From: an uncultured bacterium
GTDB lineage: Bacteria; Planctomycetota; Planctomycetia; Gemmatales; Gemmataceae
Direction: 5' to 3'
Assembly: GCA_963923445.1 (NCBI GenBank)
Contig: CAWUNZ010000001.1
Location: 1-55,694, forward strand
DNA: 55,694 nt
Under the pieces are notes generated by a model. It was not told where the DNA came from, searched no databases, and worked only from the letters and a program-made list of their open reading frames with translations. Within the stretch, counting starts at the first letter, position 1; each line of letters begins with the position of its first letter. Made by a program: the position numbers and the translations under genes. This document shows, piece after piece, positions 19,609 through 24,958 of the stretch.

Positions 19609-19685
19609 ACCCTTGCCTTGGGCCGCCAAGTCCCCACAACAACCTGATAAACTAACCGCTGAACAATATGTCACGGGAGATTGAG

Positions 19686-20738
19686 ATGTCGTCGCTCAAG
19701 TCGCTGATCGCCTCGGGAACCAAGCTATGGCTCGATTCGATCGAGCCTGAACTCGTGAAGAAGAACCGCGCCTTGGGTGCCACCGGCGCGACCTCCAACC
19801 CGATCATCGTTTCCGACATCCTCAAAGGCGGAAAGTTCGATGACGAGATCAAGAAACTTCTCGCCGCCGGGCATTCCGACGAGGAAGTGGCTTGGGCCAT
19901 GACCGACAAGCTTGTCAGCCAAGCCCAGCAAGTGTTCCTGCCCGTATGGGAATCGACCAAGTGCAACGACGGTTGGGTCAGCTTCGAACTGGACCCGCTG
20001 CTGGAAGACAAGGCCTGCCCGCTGAGCATCCCCGAGCGTTCCAAAAAATACGCCGAGTTGGGCAAGAAGTACGCAGCCGGCCAGAAGAACCGAATGATCA
20101 AGGTTCCGGCCACTCCCGCGGGCCTTGGGGCGCTTGAGGAACTCGCCGCCGCCGGCGTGACCCTGAATGTGACGCTGATTTTCTCAAAGGATCAGTACCT
20201 GGCCGCGCGCGAGGCCGTGTGGAAGGGTGCCCAGCGCCGACCCGGTGGCTTGGCCACATTCAAGTCGGTCTATTCGATCTTCGTCAGCCGGGTGGATGTT
20301 TACACCCTGGCCCATGTGCCTTCGTTGATTCCCGCCGCCCAGGGGCAGGTGGGCATCGTGAACGCCAAGCGCATCTGGAAGATGAACAAGGATTTCTGGG
20401 CCTCGAAGAACCTTCCCCTTGAGCAGGAGATGATCTTCGCCAGCACCGGGGTCAAGGATCCCAAGGCGGATCCTACCACTTATGTGGCCGCGTTCGCCGG
20501 TTCCGACATTGAAACCAACCCGCCCGCCACCAACGACGCCGTGGAAGCCAGCGGCAAGTCGTTCAGCCGGCAGGTGGATCACCTGCCACCCGCCGATGTC
20601 CTTGCCGACATCGACGCCAAGGTGGACATGCGCAAGCTTGAGGACACGCTCATGTCCGAAGGCCTCGAGAAGTTCTCCGATCCGTTCAAGAAGCTTCTGG
20701 CCCTGATCGGTTCCAAGCGCGCCTCGCTGGGTTCCTGA
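19686..20738 (+). CDS. tal: transaldolase family protein
   Basis: [11 protein letters not shown]...GATGATSNP and MIKVPAT (Schiff-base Lys region). Second ATG 19686 chosen because GGGAG lies 6 nt upstream; the track start is 19668. Confidence 0.88.
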
Positions 20739-20766
20739 TAACCCTAACCGGCAACCTGAAAAGGTT

Positions 20767-20798
20767 GGGGCCCCGCGGTCGCGGGGCCCCTTGGTTTT
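20767..20798. terminator. bidirectional rho-independent terminator between transaldolase and the Cys-Cys repeat gene
   Basis: 10-bp stem GGGGCCCCGC / GCGGGGCCCC (20767-20776 / 20781-20790) with a 4-nt loop. TTGGTTTT follows on the plus strand and AACCTTTTC on the minus strand. Confidence 0.65.
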
Positions 20799-20814
20799 CA
20801 TGGCTTTGATGGAA

Positions 20815-21108
20815 TCAGTTGCAGCAGGCGCCGTTGGGGCAGCAGGCCTTTTGGGCTTCGCAGCAGTCACCGGCCTCACAGCAGGCGGCGCCGGGAACGC
20901 AGCAATCGGCACCTTCCTTGCAGCAGTCACCATCGCCACCACAGCAAGCGGCGGTGCCGCAGCACTCGCCGGTCGCGCAGCAGGCGGCATCGGGTGCGCA
21001 GCAGGCACCTTGGCCGCAGCATGGGCCGGCCCATTTCCACGCGGCATAACCGGTGGCACCGAGACCCAAGAGGACCGCACTCACAACCATCGCGGATTTC
21101 AGGAACAT
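20815..21108 (-). CDS. small secreted Cys-Cys dipeptide repeat protein (97 aa, 22 Cys), no family recognised
   Basis: MFLKSAMVVSAVLLGLGATGYA signal-like leader, then AWKWAGP-CC-GQGA-CC-APDAA-CC-ATGE-CC-GTAA-CC-GGDGD-CC-KEGAD-CC-VPGAA-CC-EAGD-CC-EAQKA-CC-PNGA-CC-N. AAGGAG (21116-21121) lies 7 nt before ATG 21108. The third codon position is mostly G/C in this frame. Confidence 0.75.
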   Translation of the reverse strand: MFLKSAMVVSAVLLGLGATGYAAWKWAGPCCGQGACCAPDAACCATGECCGTAACCGGDGDCCKEGADCCVPGAACCEAGDCCEAQKACCPNGACCN

Positions 21109-21206
21109 GGTCATTCTCCTTGTTTCAAAGACTTGATTTCAACTGTTCGGGACTAAGGACGGAATGGACTGGCACCCGGATTTGGGTGAAGAACTTTCCA
21201 TGGCTC

Positions 21207-21581
21207 TTAGCAGTTGAACCGGCAGTGGAGGAGATGAGTGCGCCTGCCCCACCCCGGTGGACTATCCACCAAGACAGGTGATTCCCTAACGGCTGTGAGG
21301 GAAAGATCCGCGCTGAAAGGCCATGCCGTCAAGGCGTCGGCCGAATCGCCCCCCGATGTTGGCGTTCCCCGTTCCGTATGGGTGGCGGGATCTGCCTTTT
21401 GACAGCAGGGGGATTGGCGGGTTGGCGCGGGATCGGGCCGAGGTTCTCCTGATTCGCCACCGCAGCAGCAACAGGCTTTGGCTGGCGCGGCGGCAAAAAG
21501 GCGCACGCAGCAGACATGGGGCGGCACGAGCAAGGTGGCCAAGGCCACCAAAGCACCCATGCTGTTCCAAATCCGCTGCAT
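21207..21581 (-). CDS. hypothetical membrane-anchored or secreted protein with Cys clusters (HVCC, ACCCC, PCC, C-terminal HC..NC)
   Basis: MQRIWNSMGALVALATLLVPPHVCCVRLFAAAPAKACCCCGG...SPCCQK...HLLHCRFNC. GGGAG lies 8 nt upstream of ATG 21581. Several overlapping alternative-frame ORFs exist here, so the frame is less certain than for the neighbouring gene. Confidence 0.5.
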   Translation of the reverse strand: MQRIWNSMGALVALATLLVPPHVCCVRLFAAAPAKACCCCGGESGEPRPDPAPTRQSPCCQKADPATHTERGTPTSGGDSADALTAWPFSADLSLTAVRESPVLVDSPPGWGRRTHLLHCRFNC

Positions 21582-21628
21582 GGAAAAAACTCCCGGTCGT
21601 CAACCCGCGACACACATAGTCTACGCTC

Positions 21629-22012
21629 ATGTCGGCATCAAGGTTGGCTCGAATCGCGTTCTTCTGCCGTTGGGCTTTCTGGAGCCTCCTTCTAGCCATT
21701 TCGGTTGCCCTGTTGCGCCCGGAACCGATTGCCGTACGCGATGAACTGGTTCCGGAAGAGGGGCGATTTCACGCCGCAAAAGCCTTTCATGTATTGGGTT
21801 ACGCCTTATTAACCATTCTGGCTGCCACCGGTTACCCCCATCGGGGCGTCTTGATCGGACTGATCTTGGTGGCCCATGGGGCGCTGGTCGAAATCATCCA
21901 ACCCCATGTCGGTCGCAACGGCACGGTTATCGATGTCGCCTTTGACGCTGCTGGCGTTGCCTTGGGTTTTTGGCTGATCCGTACCCTTGGATCGAAGCCT
22001 CCCGCCACTTGA
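21629..22012 (+). CDS. VanZ-like family membrane protein
   Basis: Four hydrophobic helices with the VanZ-like pattern H..GY..L, EIIQ...GR...D...D..G. Divergent from the Cys-cluster gene, 47 bp between starts. Confidence 0.7.
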   Translation: MSASRLARIAFFCRWAFWSLLLAISVALLRPEPIAVRDELVPEEGRFHAAKAFHVLGYALLTILAATGYPHRGVLIGLILVAHGALVEIIQPHVGRNGTVIDVAFDAAGVALGFWLIRTLGSKPPAT

Positions 22013-22066: not shown

Positions 22067-24958
22067 ATGCTGGCTTTTTCACTTGTCTCATTGTTGGCCG
22101 TCGGCGAGGTCCGATGCCCCGAGGATGCCTGCCTCCGCGGAATCGCCTTCCTGGACGCCAATAACGGTTGGACGGTCGGGGACGATGGCGCCATCTGGCG
22201 AACCACCGATGGTGGCGCCCGTTGGGAGCGCCAGTCCGGAGGCACGCGCGGGTCGCTTCGTCGGGTGGTTTTTCAGGACGCCCAGCGGGGTTGGATTTGC
22301 GGCCGCGAGGACGGACCCGGTGGATCCAGCGGCGTGCTTCTCGTCACACGCGACGGAGGGAGCACCTGGCAACGGGTGCTCGCGGGAGCGGTTCCGGCAC
22401 TTCATGGGATCGCCTTTGTCAATGACAATGACGGATACCTTTGGGGGGAAGCCTCCGGCCCCTACAGCTCCGGCCTGTTCCAAACCAAGGATGGCGGCCG
22501 GTCATGGGCACCCGTCCCGGGCCTGTCGCCGGGCGGGTGGACATCGGCCTGGTTTGCCGCCATGGACTCCGGCTTGCTGGTCGGCATGGATGGCCGGGTG
22601 CATCAGTTCAGCGGCAAGGAATGGTCTCCGATACCCGCTGACGCGCTCGCTAACCATCGCGCCCTGGCCTGCCTTGGAGGTCTGGCCTGTGGCGAGGGGG
22701 GCCTGCTGATCGACCAACAGAACGGCAGGTGGTCTCTCGCGAGGTCGCATATTGACGCCAAGGCGCTGGGTCAGGTCGCCTGGCGCGCCATGGCCAGGCA
22801 GGGCGATCGCGTGGTGGTGGCGGGTTCTCCCGGCGGTGTGGTGCTCCTGAGCGACGACGGCGGCAGGCATTTCGCGCCTCGCCTGACCGGCGTTCCGCAC
22901 TCGCTACACGACTCCTGCCTTCTGCCTGACGGCACGGCCTACGCCTGCGGCGCCATGGGAACGGTGATCCGCAGTGCCGATGGGGGCAAAACTTGGACAA
23001 CGGTGCGCCAACCGGTCACCCACGCGGCCATGCTGGTGGCGGGACGCGACCCGGCCAAAATGCCTTGGCGCACCATCGCCCAGCATGGGTGGGATGACGG
23101 CCTTGCCGTGGCCGCCCTGGTGGTTTCAAGGGATGCCGACCCCGCCAGGCTTGTCGCGGCCCACCGCCACGCGGGATTGGTGGCCACCGAAGCCACCCGT
23201 GCCGGCGCCGCGTGGCGCGAGCGCCTGGTGATGGCGCTGCGCCAATTCCAGCCGGAGCACCTCCTGGTGACTTCCGGCGGTGCCGACGACAAGGCTTGGC
23301 TTTTGGAGGCCTCCGCGGCGGCGCAATGGGCCTCGGAACCGGAGCGATTCCCCGAGCAGATCGAGGCACTGGGACTCAAGGCCTGGCAAGGCGGCGTCGT
23401 TTGGCGTCAATCGGTGGGTGACGAAGCGACCGTCCGTGTGATGGGCCAGAGGCCTTCCGACCGGTTGGAGGACACCGTCGACGGACATGCCGCCGCCACC
23501 ATGGCGCTTTTCGGGATCTCTGAAGATAATCCGCAGGGATTTGATGGCTGGGCGGCCATGAAACCGCGTCCGGGGGAAACCTGGCGTTCGCTGCTGGCCG
23601 CATCCTCGGCGCGGTTGCAAGGCGCGCGCAGGCCACTGCCCATGCCAGAACCGATGGATGCCGCCACCGCCAAGGCGCTCGAGCAAAGGCGCCTCCACGA
23701 GGCGCTGGCGCGCCCGGGAACCCTGCCACAGGCGGATGGCGAACGCGCGGCCTCGTCGTTGGGCGCCACATTGGACCATTTGGACGATGCCCGAGGCGCG
23801 CCGTTCCTCGATCGTTTGGCCTCCGGAGCGGAACGCTCGGGCCGCTGGCAGTTGGCGCGGGAATTAAGGGCCATGCTGGTGGAACGGTACCCGGCGCATC
23901 CGCTCGCCTTGGCATCCACCCGCTGGCTGATCGGGCACGAATCCAGCAGCGAGGTGCGCCGCCGCGAGGAACTGGCCCGCACGGTGGAACGGGCGATCAT
24001 GCAGGCGGGCATGCCGAACGCCTCGGGTTCCCGGCCGGTGCCCGCTCCCGGTGGTAAAACCATCGAGGCCCCCGAAACCATCACCCAAGTCACCCGGGAA
24101 ACCATCGTGCTCGACGGCCGCGCACTGACTCGCAAAAACCTCGAAACCTGTCTGGCGCGCGAGGCGTTGCTTCGGGCCTCCGGCAGCCTGGCCGCGCAGG
24201 ATCCGGGCACCCAGTTCATGCTCCAATCGGCCCGAAGGCAACTGGGGCAGTTCGAACCAGCGGCGGCGTACTACAAGAAGGCTGCTTCCTCGCTGGCCAA
24301 GGGAAGCCCGTGGCAGACCGCCGCGGAAATGGAGCTTTGGTTGGCGAACCGCGCGGGGGAACCTCCCCGACCGGCAATCGCCTGCCGGCAAGCCCAATCC
24401 CGCCCCCACCTCGACGGCAGGCTGGAAGATCCATGCTGGCAAAACGCCCTGCGCCCGATGGAGGGCGCCTCGACTCCCACCACCGTGGCCATGGCTTTCG
24501 ACTCCGGGTTTCTTTACCTGGCGGCCCGGTGCCCGGGCGCGGCGCCCGATGGCGGGGTTCAGGCCGCGGGCCGGACGCCGGACTCGGCGCGGGATTCGCG
24601 CGACAGGGTGTGCTTCTTCCTCGACCTCGATCGCGATCACTCCACGGGTTACACGCTCACCATCGACGATCAGGGCCGGGTGGCGGATCGGTGTTGCGAC
24701 GACCCCACCTGGGATCCGCGCTGGTTCGTGGCCGTTGCCCGCGAGGAGGACGCCTGGACTCTGGAAGCCGCGATTCCACTTTCCGCCCTCACCGGGGAAA
24801 CAGTCACCACCGGGCAGGCCTGGCTGGTGCAGGTGGCCCGCATGCGCGGTGAGGATCCCGTGGCCATCTGGTCGAGGGGCAAGGGCGTTGGCCCCGGGCC
24901 TTTCTTCCCGGGGCAACCGGGTCTGGCGCTCTTTTTGCCCTCAGGCAAGCCGCGGTGA
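22067..24958 (+). CDS. multidomain protein: Asp-box (BNR/Ycf48-like) beta-propeller + central alpha-helical/TPR-like region + CBM9/DOMON-like C-terminus
   Basis: Five Asp-box motifs (TTDGGARW, TRDGGSTW, TKDGGRSW, SDDGGRHF, SADGGKTW). The C-terminal LDGRLEDPCWQNA...FLYLAARC...FFLDLDRDHSTGY...WTLEAAIPLSAL resembles carbohydrate-binding family 9. A GGAGGA SD lies 6 nt upstream. Confidence 0.8.
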   Translation: MLAFSLVSLLAVGEVRCPEDACLRGIAFLDANNGWTVGDDGAIWRTTDGGARWERQSGGTRGSLRRVVFQDAQRGWICGREDGPGGSSGVLLVTRDGGSTWQRVLAGAVPALHGIAFVNDNDGYLWGEASGPYSSGLFQTKDGGRSWAPVPGLSPGGWTSAWFAAMDSGLLVGMDGRVHQFSGKEWSPIPADALANHRALACLGGLACGEGGLLIDQQNGRWSLARSHIDAKALGQVAWRAMARQGDRVVVAGSPGGVVLLSDDGGRHFAPRLTGVPHSLHDSCLLPDGTAYACGAMGTVIRSADGGKTWTTVRQPVTHAAMLVAGRDPAKMPWRTIAQHGWDDGLAVAALVVSRDADPARLVAAHRHAGLVATEATRAGAAWRERLVMALRQFQPEHLLVTSGGADDKAWLLEASAAAQWASEPERFPEQIEALGLKAWQGGVVWRQSVGDEATVRVMGQRPSDRLEDTVDGHAAATMALFGISEDNPQGFDGWAAMKPRPGETWRSLLAASSARLQGARRPLPMPEPMDAATAKALEQRRLHEALARPGTLPQADGERAASSLGATLDHLDDARGAPFLDRLASGAERSGRWQLARELRAMLVERYPAHPLALASTRWLIGHESSSEVRRREELARTVERAIMQAGMPNASGSRPVPAPGGKTIEAPETITQVTRETIVLDGRALTRKNLETCLAREALLRASGSLAAQDPGTQFMLQSARRQLGQFEPAAAYYKKAASSLAKGSPWQTAAEMELWLANRAGEPPRPAIACRQAQSRPHLDGRLEDPCWQNALRPMEGASTPTTVAMAFDSGFLYLAARCPGAAPDGGVQAAGRTPDSARDSRDRVCFFLDLDRDHSTGYTLTIDDQGRVADRCCDDPTWDPRWFVAVAREEDAWTLEAAIPLSALTGETVTTGQAWLVQVARMRGEDPVAIWSRGKGVGPGPFFPGQPGLALFLPSGKPR

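Follow-up and report, generated by a model that had tools for sequence, protein, structure and literature searches.

The CC-repeat gene and the open reading frame (ORF) directly upstream of it, hereafter the partner gene, form a two-gene cassette on the minus strand of a 55,694-nucleotide (nt) stretch of DNA (the window) from an uncultured bacterium of the planctomycete family Gemmataceae (GenBank assembly GCA_963923445.1, contig CAWUNZ010000001.1, positions 1 to 55,694). The best explanation of this cassette, with a probability of roughly 55%, is that it encodes an exported soft-metal sponge, the CC protein, composed of regularly spaced vicinal cysteine pairs, together with a cis-acting partner sensor. 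Both genes are real and conserved, and so is their order. An initial annotation of the window, made from the sequence alone, had described an exported mini-protein of periodic Cys-Cys pairs as a lone gene; the mini-protein is genuine, and the upstream partner that the annotation had missed makes the unit a two-gene cassette.

A periodic vicinal-cysteine protein and its family

The CC protein consists of a leader (MFLKSAMVVSAVLLGLGATGYA), the short segment AWKWAGP and eleven CC pairs, whose successive spacings are 6, 7, 6, 6, 7, 7, 7, 6, 7 and 6 residues. All 22 Cys lie in pairs, and the mature part of ~75 amino acids (aa) is 29% Cys, with no His and only two Trp, both at the mature N-terminus. 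The period of 6-7 residues reported in the initial annotation is borne out by this count and by shuffling of the mature region, as none of 200,000 shuffles yielded 11 isolated CC pairs. A recount of its GCAGCA/ACAGCA repeat likewise agrees, with 11 occurrences of [GA]CAGCA on the plus strand between 20821 and 21016, in steps of 18 or 21 nt. The DNA copies of the repeat unit share 61-80% identity and Tandem Repeats Finder reported no array over the gene; the repeat is therefore one of protein rather than of nucleotides, in line with the earlier suggestion that selection acts on the CC period. The leader, judged by inspection, has a basic n-region, a 14-residue hydrophobic core and small residues at -3/-1. 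It reads as Sec-type, which upholds its earlier description as signal-like, and equivalent leaders or lipoboxes are present at the N-termini of relatives. The CC protein is thus predicted to carry a conserved export signal. AlphaFold2 gave a pLDDT of 56.6 and only helical turns of 3-6 residues, with no fold, a prediction that would fit an apo-metallothionein folding only around metal.

The coding status of the CC gene is supported by several independent features. The minus-strand frame and its AAGGAG Shine-Dalgarno (SD) sequence 7 nt before ATG 21108, as first annotated, can be read directly and agree with the ORF list; an in-frame alternative start at ATG 21114 would give a product of 99 aa (ORF 20815..21114, minus strand). 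The 97-aa version is annotated as a gene in three independent metagenome assemblies that are 98-99.4% identical to the window. When the seven Pfam-supported or long genes of the window are taken as the codon reference set, the CC frame scores -0.05 log-likelihood units per codon over 20818-21108, the best of the six frames, with the other five at -0.19 to -0.49; its GC content at third codon positions is 0.73, and TGC is used 20 times against 2 for TGT. A plus-strand frame, which the initial annotation had named as the competing reading, is not favoured. Comparison with the closest ortholog among the loci recovered, of 96 aa at locus L058, shows that 22/22 Cys are kept, that differences fall 20/21/40 by codon position with 21 codons synonymously changed, and that the 30 amino-acid changes and the single indel all lie in spacers or leader. 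At strain level dN/dS is uninformative, near-identical contigs differing by 1-4 positions.

These data bear on the suggestion that the CC gene is a chance low-complexity antisense ORF rather than a gene. High-GC DNA does hold long overlapping ORFs in several frames, and neither a word-index homolog search with the 99-aa form nor an exact cluster look-up returned a match for the CC protein. The codon score, the synonymous bias of the substitutions with all Cys conserved, the gene's own SD and terminator, and positional orthologs in at least ten genera-level lineages, with ~77 members keeping the period, all speak against it. Its probability is negligible, and the comparative data refute it. The overlapping plus-strand ORFs and the other minus-strand ORFs are by-products of high-GC DNA, and there is very little doubt that the CC gene and its family are real.

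The CC-repeat proteins are a widespread unannotated family. An exhaustive phmmer search of 1.8 billion representatives recovered five small proteins of the same build (P0005, P0011, P0012, P0015 and P0017), and a profile derived from them recovered 36 proteins; both searches brought up products that combine a signal peptide with a CC repeat. GTDB species genomes, scanned with a degenerate DNA pattern representing a pair of adjoining units (CCxxG[AS]xCCxxG[AS]xCC), gave at least 120 loci, about half of which were off-frame or off-target low-complexity sequences; after frame filtering, at least about 50 true members remained, and the family comprises at least ~77. Among 77 members, CC pairs account for 92% of 1532 Cys, and 75% of the 632 steps from one pair to the next measure 6 or 7 residues, so the CC spacing, whose loss in homologs would have spoken for a chance ORF, is conserved; this sample is skewed towards the motif by the pattern scan, but the members derived from the hidden Markov model show it too. 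The consensus unit is CC-[VAKF]-[PE]-G-[AS]-[APDE], that is, a heptad CC-x-[PE]-G-[AS]-x with Pro/Gly-rich spacers.

Members occur in Planctomycetota (Gemmataceae, Frigoriglobus, Fimbriiglobus and other planctomycete metagenome-assembled genomes, MAGs), Acidobacteriota (Blastocatellia and Pyrinomonadaceae), Victivallales and many Myxococcota, and the CC module is also found in a Bacteroidota-like HMA protein. Cultured carriers include Planctomicrobium sp. SH661/SH664/SH668, Alienimonas sp. DA493 and the myxococcote Labilithrix luteola. As the initial annotation had held, the CC protein belongs to no known family by the models searched: it had no Pfam or NCBIfam match at E<=1, 24 relatives had none at E<=0.01, and a PDB sequence search with the family gave chance matches only (C5a and toxins; E>0.03). 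One relative matched the PtrA_PA2808 N-terminal domain (NCBIfam, E=0.0033), which was judged a signal-peptide artefact. Literature searches on repeat peptides, periplasmic or secreted metallothioneins and Cys-rich copper proteins of Planctomycetes found no description of the motif or family.

Two individual records call for comment. The gene model of P0017 (268 aa, JGI contig) is over-extended, the CC-repeat protein being its C-terminal ~118 aa only (MMRTKLLVITAVALL...), and it shows that gene callers handle this family poorly. The contig of L058 (CAMCLK010000017.1) has a GC content of 0.57, that of the window being 0.63, and is labelled as a 'Candidatus Kuenenia stuttgartiensis' MAG; since Kuenenia has a GC content of about 41%, the contig is probably mis-binned or mislabelled. 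It shares the BNR/partner/CC synteny of the window.

The upstream partner gene and its predicted pairing with the Shine-Dalgarno sequence

The partner gene came to light in an alignment of the ~500-700-bp stretches, nominally intergenic, that precede the CC gene at three orthologous loci. Its product has the layout MQRIWNSMGALVALATLLVPPHVCC...ACCCC...SPCCQKAD...GRRTHLLHCRFNC-stop, with a PPHVCC motif also present, and begins with a basic n-region followed by a 12-residue hydrophobic core. AlphaFold2 predicted only an N-terminal helix (residues 2-17), in a model of low confidence, and a PDB sequence search gave no match. Orthologs occupy the same position at loci L058, L004, L007, L011, L033, L032, L101, L102, L088 and L134-141. 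By tblastn and ORF inspection the gene directly precedes the CC gene, co-oriented with it, in ten Planctomycetota lineages, at gaps of 64-152 nt, and at eight further metagenome loci; altogether about 25 cassettes have a partner-like gene in this position. The gap between the two genes is 98 nt in the window and 62-235 nt over 25 cassettes, falling within 62-152 nt in 23 of them. The ORF was uncalled in all annotations of the fetched metagenome contigs: gene callers systematically miss it. A profile search with the partner recovered 14 'hypothetical' proteins of 124-179 aa, all without a Pfam domain.

The conserved parts of the partner are chiefly its N-terminal helix, its CC motifs and its final ~12 residues, whereas the intervening linker of ~52 residues is variable. 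The motifs PPH-x-CC, CCCC and PCC are invariant or nearly so across 14-24 sequences. Several types of C-terminus can be distinguished, namely R[PR]xH[VL]LxCxWxC-stop and ...HHxLRC-stop, a Planctomicrobium type ending in ...PPPKxxxx-stop and an Acidobacteriota type ending in PNRGxTYLRCCVFLI-stop.

A duplex is predicted between the 3' end of the partner gene and the CC-gene SD. In the window, a stretch within the final partner codons is complementary to AGGAGAAUGA, which comprises the CC-gene SD plus ATG 21114, and the duplex has a predicted energy of -11.2 kcal/mol by minimum free energy (MFE) fold and duplex calculation. The corresponding duplex is more stable in most other cassettes, among them L058 at -15.0 and L134 at -18.8. 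MFE folds of the last 33 nt of the partner gene, the spacer and the CC start place the final partner codons, with CUCC or UUCC cores, opposite the SD in most cassettes. When the last 36 nt were tested as duplexes against SD regions, the mean energy was -13.6 kcal/mol for cognate and -10.8 kcal/mol for non-cognate combinations, and the cognate mean was not attained in any of 20,000 permutations. In 12 of the 25 cassettes all internal 36-nt windows of the partner ORF pair less strongly than its 3' end. The flanks of the core co-vary (CUCCACUG/CAGUGGAG, CUCCAGUG/ACUGGAG, UUCCGUUG/CAACGGAG and UUCCUGAUUU/AAAUCAGGAG). The partner's L-x-C motif has H, R, Q or L at its variable position; all four have codons starting with C, and CUCC is therefore preserved. 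The predicted pairing of the partner 3' end with the SD is thus cognate-specific.

A second predicted element is an inner stem-loop of the partner-CC spacer, one side of which, UUCAACUGCUAAG, corresponds to the last three codons of the partner plus its stop. The helix UUCAACUG/CAGUUGAA is also present in L134, and the close relatives L058 and L134 have in common an inner helix that includes the partner stop codon. It is conservation, rather than folding energy, that argues for this putative stem-loop. A search of 20500-21900 against Rfam gave sub-threshold chance matches only.

Fusions and genomic contexts that point to soft metals

The function of the CC module is suggested chiefly by its fusions. 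At least ten members carry a C-terminal HMA domain (eight profile matches flagged PF00403, plus loci L078 and L128); P0021 matches HMA at E=8e-10 and is annotated as 'cation transporter, Gemmataceae', and P0040 has an N-terminal HMA domain with the CC units after it. In a Planctomycetota MAG (JACPRD010000135.1; L082:21-629, plus strand), a lipoprotein bears three CC units (CCKEGAACCKEGADCC) preceding a Cu,Zn-superoxide dismutase (SOD) domain (Sod_Cu, E=1.5e-41). SodC being periplasmic, this fusion places the CC module outside the cytoplasm.

Gene context adds to these indications at some loci. The CC-HMA gene P0045 at L012 lies amid CzcB/CusB adaptors, a multicopper oxidase, an HMA protein, an outer-membrane efflux protein (OEP) and three TRASH/YHS-like lipoproteins, a copper island that also contains a member of the partner family. 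The Frigoriglobus cassette L045 has a P1B-ATPase with YHS and HMBD domains directly downstream, and CusF-like genes occur near the Pyrinomonadaceae copies. On guilt by association, the CC protein is rather probably an exported thiolate binder of soft metals, and Cu(I) is the most likely bound metal on the same sequence-based grounds. Among the four functional options of the initial annotation (redox-active vicinal disulfides, soft-metal binding, a disulfide-crosslinked envelope component and a precursor of a ribosomally synthesized and post-translationally modified peptide, RiPP), only soft-metal binding appears to gain independent, if indirect, support from these comparisons.

The L012 operon itself (L012:6372-9569, on a Gemmataceae-like contig of GC 0.72) is flanked by OEP, multicopper oxidase and CusB/CzcB genes, and comprises a partner-like 160-aa gene, a 281-aa lipoprotein, two ~120-aa TRASH/YHS-like proteins and the CC-HMA fusion. 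The two ~120-aa products carry CPx...CCxxC motifs and represent small TRASH-like proteins barely seen by Pfam. At the Pyrinomonadaceae loci L117:1588-3018 and L063:4720-6168, a conserved ORF of ~480 aa without a Pfam match lies directly downstream of the CC gene; its equivalent at L103 has a weak match to Phenol_MetA_deg, an outer-membrane barrel.

Recurrent neighbour families are few. When 135 genes neighbouring 36 loci were assigned to Pfam families and the top 25 families evaluated, redoxins were commonest (6/135), followed by extracytoplasmic function (ECF) sigma factors (4, in Myxococcota) and CusF (2), and no enzyme family recurred adjoining these loci. The thioredoxin-fold TlpA/redoxin neighbours are mostly acidobacterial. 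Such genes may keep periplasmic CC thiols reduced, and their frequency would be expected if periplasmic thiols must be kept in that state. Near the acidobacterial cassettes, TlpA/redoxin-like genes with a WCGPC motif recur at L063:2808-3392, L063:6488-7246, L091:3594-4130, L103:3902-4402, L103:7251-7901 and L115:1438-2025.

The same neighbours can be read in favour of a redox or structural protein, in which the CC pairs would form disulfides, either strained vicinal ones or an inter-unit ladder, and the product would buffer thiols and disulfides in the periplasm, scavenge oxidants or form a cross-linked part of the envelope. A Cys content of 29% in an exported protein, PG-rich spacers that suggest turns rather than helices, and old reports of cystine-rich planctomycete envelopes would suit this proposal, but the HMA and Cu,Zn-SOD fusions and the Cus, multicopper oxidase and P1B-ATPase contexts point to metals, and the redoxin neighbours fit the maintenance of reduced metal-binding thiols equally well. 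Moreover, many members are too small for a structural role (60 aa, three CC units), AlphaFold2 shows no disulfide-stabilised fold, and the family extends to phyla with ordinary Gram-negative envelopes. The occurrence of the module in Acidobacteriota, Victivallales, Myxococcota and a Bacteroidota-like HMA protein weakens the planctomycete-envelope option in particular. A redox or structural role is accordingly considered unlikely.

A RiPP precursor would use its leader to guide the Cys-rich core to a maturase encoded elsewhere, in the style of the MNIO-modified bufferins or of ranthipeptides, yielding a modified metallophore or natural product. The Cys-rich product with its leader-like N-terminus resembles such precursors, and bufferin precursors are likewise Sec-exported copper-chelating Cys peptides (PMC12452194). 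However, none of DUF692/MNIO, DUF2063 or radical-SAM/SPASM is found among the called genes around the window locus, in agreement with the initial annotation, which had noted no adjacent maturase. None of these families recurs in the neighbour census either, Radical_SAM appearing twice in unrelated contexts, and the sole conserved neighbour is a non-enzymatic ORF of ~125 aa. The in-frame fusion of the CC module to folded periplasmic HMA and SOD domains and the Sec or lipoprotein nature of the leader weaken the RiPP option further, leaving it quite improbable.

Myxococcota contain a distinct group of mini-CC proteins (loci L015, L037, L054, L060, L061, L067, L068, L072, L081, L085, L086, L093, L108 and L109). 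These are ~60 aa long, with the N-terminus R-T-H-W-R-x-I-S-T, one transmembrane helix, a His-rich tail and exactly three CC units (D-CC-x-PG-xx-CC-x-PG-xx-CC), and they may be metal- or redox-sensing anti-sigma-like proteins.

It could be asked whether the CC module is generally a sensor or signalling domain rather than a sink, the window protein being an expanded version of the Myxococcota type. Four Myxococcota mini-CC genes do lie immediately upstream of Sigma70_r2 (ECF sigma) genes, with which they would be co-transcribed, and the minis share a conserved short cytoplasmic N-terminus. Nevertheless, neither the window cassette nor its orthologs have a sigma or regulator gene nearby, a cleavable-looking leader followed by eleven repeats is better suited to capacity than to switching, and the minis would themselves still imply recognition of metal or redox state by the same motif. 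This possibility is regarded as very improbable.

The features of the window locus are collected in Table 1. The palindrome downstream of the CC gene is predicted to be a bidirectional intrinsic terminator common to that gene and the convergent transaldolase gene. A promoter-like site at 21142-21113 overlaps the CC-gene SD and was not used as evidence. On the other side of the cassette, a gene for a VanZ-like membrane protein (21629-22012, plus strand) starts 47 nt from the partner ATG on the opposite strand and is followed by a 963-aa BNR/Ycf48-like gene (22067-24958, plus strand). Of the neighbourhood conservation to which the initial annotation had looked, the upstream partner holds across ~25 cassettes, and the VanZ-like/BNR/cassette synteny is confined to the five closest lineages (window, L004, L007, L011 and L058); the VanZ-like and BNR genes were for that reason rejected as parts of the system and are treated as synteny.

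Table 1. Features of the cassette and its immediate surroundings (positions in the window)
Feature	Position	Strand	Details
CC-repeat gene	20815..21108	-	97 aa; stop codon 20815-20817; ORF list
Signal peptide/anchor MFLKSAMVVSAVLLGLGATGYA	21043..21108	-	Sec-type, by inspection; likely cleavage after G-Y-A
Eleven CC units, 6/7-residue period	20821..21021	-	presumed thiolate metal-binding region
Shine-Dalgarno AAGGAG of CC gene	21116..21121	-	7 nt upstream of ATG 21108; read from sequence
Inner stem-loop of partner-CC spacer	21138..21218	-	UUCAACUGCUAAG predicted to pair with CUUAG...CAGUUGAA; MFE and centroid fold
Partner gene	21207..21581	-	124 aa; conserved ORF; directly upstream of CC gene
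Anti-SD stretch UCAUCUCCU	21229..21237	-	inside partner codons T-H-L-L-H; predicted pairing with AGGAGAAUGA
Partner candidate ribosome-binding site GGGAG	21590..21594	-	8 nt before ATG 21581; read from sequence
GC-rich palindrome, core stem 20767-20790, flanking A/T runs	20757..20800	.	terminator scan and inverted repeat I1
Transaldolase gene, convergent	19668-20738	+	Pfam E=1.8e-53

Known metal-binding systems, a proposed mechanism and its meaning

Metallothioneins (SmtA/BmtA, MymT and the eukaryotic proteins) are the closest functional counterparts of the CC protein, being likewise small, ~30% Cys and poor in bulky residues, with no fold in the absence of metal and a presumed common metal-thiolate chemistry. 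The CC protein has the small size, high Cys content and scarcity of aromatic residues or His by which metallothioneins are recognised. The bacterial metallothioneins known so far are rare and cytosolic, whereas the CC protein is predicted to be Sec-exported. It differs further in its strict vicinal heptad (CC-x-P/E-G-A/S-x, against CxC/CxxC in metallothioneins, or CC/CxC in the eukaryotic ones), in matching no metallothionein model and in being paired with an upstream sensor-like ORF.

Other known systems resemble the CC protein in part. The Csp1/Csp3 proteins are Cys-lined, high-capacity Cu(I) stores, as the CC protein is proposed to be, and Csp1 is exported via Tat in methanotrophs; unlike them, with their four-helix bundle bearing Cys on the helices, the CC protein has Pro/Gly spacers, no AlphaFold2 bundle and no family match. 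MerP-like periplasmic HMA proteins are exported thiolate binders of soft metals, the role proposed for the CC protein, and many CC relatives end in HMA, but the window protein lacks an HMA (PF00403) match, the HMA fold and the GMxCxxC motif, the CC repeat being a separate module. The periplasmic Cu,Zn-SODs of Haemophilus and Actinobacillus bear N-terminal His/Met-rich metal-capturing extensions. The L082 fusion has the same layout, a short low-complexity metal-binding tail before SodC, with vicinal thiolates in place of His/Met, and the window protein would be its free-standing expanded form. As regards small Cys-rich proteins of the chlamydial outer membrane or the planctomycete envelope, the CC protein had no Pfam match of any kind, and its family extends beyond the PVC superphylum. 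Bufferins are MNIO-modified, Sec-exported Cys peptides that chelate copper (PMC12452194). Their Sec signal peptide, Cys-rich core and wide distribution recur in the CC family, for which a similar role in buffering periplasmic copper is proposed; bufferins differ in needing adjacent MNIO (DUF692) and DUF2063 genes and in having 4-12 Cys that are not arranged in vicinal heptads (PMC12452194). Neither DUF692/MNIO nor DUF2063 occurs among the called genes at the window locus and its orthologs or in the top 25 neighbour families, and no radical-SAM/SPASM maturase of the SCIFF/ranthipeptide kind is near the window (Radical_SAM, 2/135 neighbours).

The partner has its nearest counterpart in CutF. In Rhodobacter, CutF acts in cis. 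This protein of <150 aa combines a Sec signal and a Cys motif with a C-terminus rich in proline; when copper binds the part of the nascent chain that has reached the periplasm, the ribosome stalls on the C-terminal motif, and stalling melts a stem-loop that shields the SD of the downstream cutO (PMC9973294; bioRxiv 10.1101/2025.02.05.636593). CutF-like ORFs (CopL, CruR, SilD and CusD) are known upstream of many copper genes, for the most part from Pseudomonadota and Bacteroidota, and Planctomycetota and Acidobacteriota are unmentioned in the main text of the published survey (PMC9973294; bioRxiv 10.1101/2025.02.05.636593). The window partner shares with CutF/CopL/CruR (PMC9973294; bioRxiv 10.1101/2025.02.05.636593; PMC9426467) a length of <150 aa, an N-terminal Sec-type signal, Cys/His motifs and a close, co-oriented downstream gene. 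Partner and CutF are further alike in a conserved C-terminus and a short spacer, and the products of both are hard to detect or annotate. A structure that shields the downstream SD is predicted in most cassettes, although only with moderate strength in the window, and many partner copies contain PP or PPP near the C-terminus. PP falls within the published 15-residue limit in L007, L011, L033, L102, P0063 and the Planctomicrobium type (PPPK), and outside it in L004, L032, L101 and the Acidobacteriota type. In contrast to CutF, the partner carries CC/CCCC rather than CxxxC motifs, its anti-SD lies inside the last codons of the ORF, its C-terminus (H-x-L-x-C-x-W-x-C or CCVFLI) is not a pure proline motif, and the gene that it would regulate is a new type of effector. 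By this analogy, regulation of the CC gene in cis by the partner is a tentative proposal, somewhat short of even odds.

The proposed mechanism can be outlined as follows. Outside the cytoplasm, thiolate clusters of the CC protein would enclose soft metals, of which Cu(I) is the most likely and Ag, Zn, Cd or Hg are possible, and the protein, with no stable fold of its own, would serve as an extracytoplasmic metallothionein-like buffer or chaperone. The partner would act as a co-translationally exported cis sensor of the CutF/CopL type rather than as a stable protein partner. Its N-terminal signal would lead the nascent chain into the translocon, so that the CC motifs (residues 24-60) reach the periplasm while the ribosome decodes the conserved C-terminal motif about 64 residues downstream of them. 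These ~64 residues, from the last CC motif to the C-terminus, would about span the ribosomal tunnel and the translocon, and would therefore account for the conserved length and variable linker of the partner. A ribosome on the last codons of the partner would melt the codon:SD helix and allow translation of the CC gene. Metal on the exposed CC motifs would prolong the pause, leading to more CC sponge and hence to sequestration of the metal. Metal binding, the identity of the metal, ribosome pausing and the direction of regulation are the steps that we infer.

Several observations weigh against this sensor-plus-sponge proposal. With respect to the RNA, the SD pairing of the window is moderate (-11.2 kcal/mol, equalled by 3 of 20 internal windows), shuffled sequences fold about as well as the window region (z = -0.97), the SD/anti-SD core, which does not vary, offers no covariation information, and the L004/L007/L011 subgroup has no convincing anti-SD. 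As to the partner protein, 14 sequences gave no DUF2946 match even at E<=10, and the PP of the window partner, at -17/-16, lies outside the 15-residue limit by two residues. Metal contexts occur at a minority of loci only, and the window neighbours (transaldolase, VanZ-like, BNR protein and UbiD), which are of housekeeping or unknown function, include no metal genes. Chemically, vicinal Cys pairs are no less suited to Hg(II) or As(III) than to Cu(I), and in the oxidising periplasm the eleven CC pairs could be disulfide-locked. Finally, it is equally plausible that the partner is a stable metal protein anchored in the membrane; this, or simple translational coupling without sensing, is a possible alternative to cis sensing.

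The exported vicinal-Cys heptad module with a CutF-like leader gene is, by sequence comparison, new and lies outside the known metallothionein, Csp, bufferin, SCIFF and HMA families. The broadest interpretation, which we advance as a conjecture slightly less probable than its negation, is that the module represents a new widespread class of extracytoplasmic metallothionein-like proteins: a mobile module of vicinal-Cys heptads, free or fused to HMA or Cu,Zn-SOD, that in Planctomycetota and Acidobacteriota would be autoregulated by a new family of CutF-like nascent-chain sensors reading the same metal with the same CC chemistry, so that sensor and sponge form a self-contained cassette. The cultured carriers Planctomicrobium, Alienimonas and Labilithrix luteola make this hypothesis directly testable, and, if it is true, the repeat would offer a compact metal-binding tag for biotechnology. 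Periplasmic buffering of Cu(I) and other thiophilic metals is partly understood, through CusF, CopC, Csp1 and bufferins. If the proposal holds, a genetically simple, unmodified, Sec-exported, high-capacity thiolate protein would constitute a new solution to this buffering, and the partner would extend co-translational metal sensing of the CutF type beyond DUF2946, Proteobacteria and Bacteroidota.

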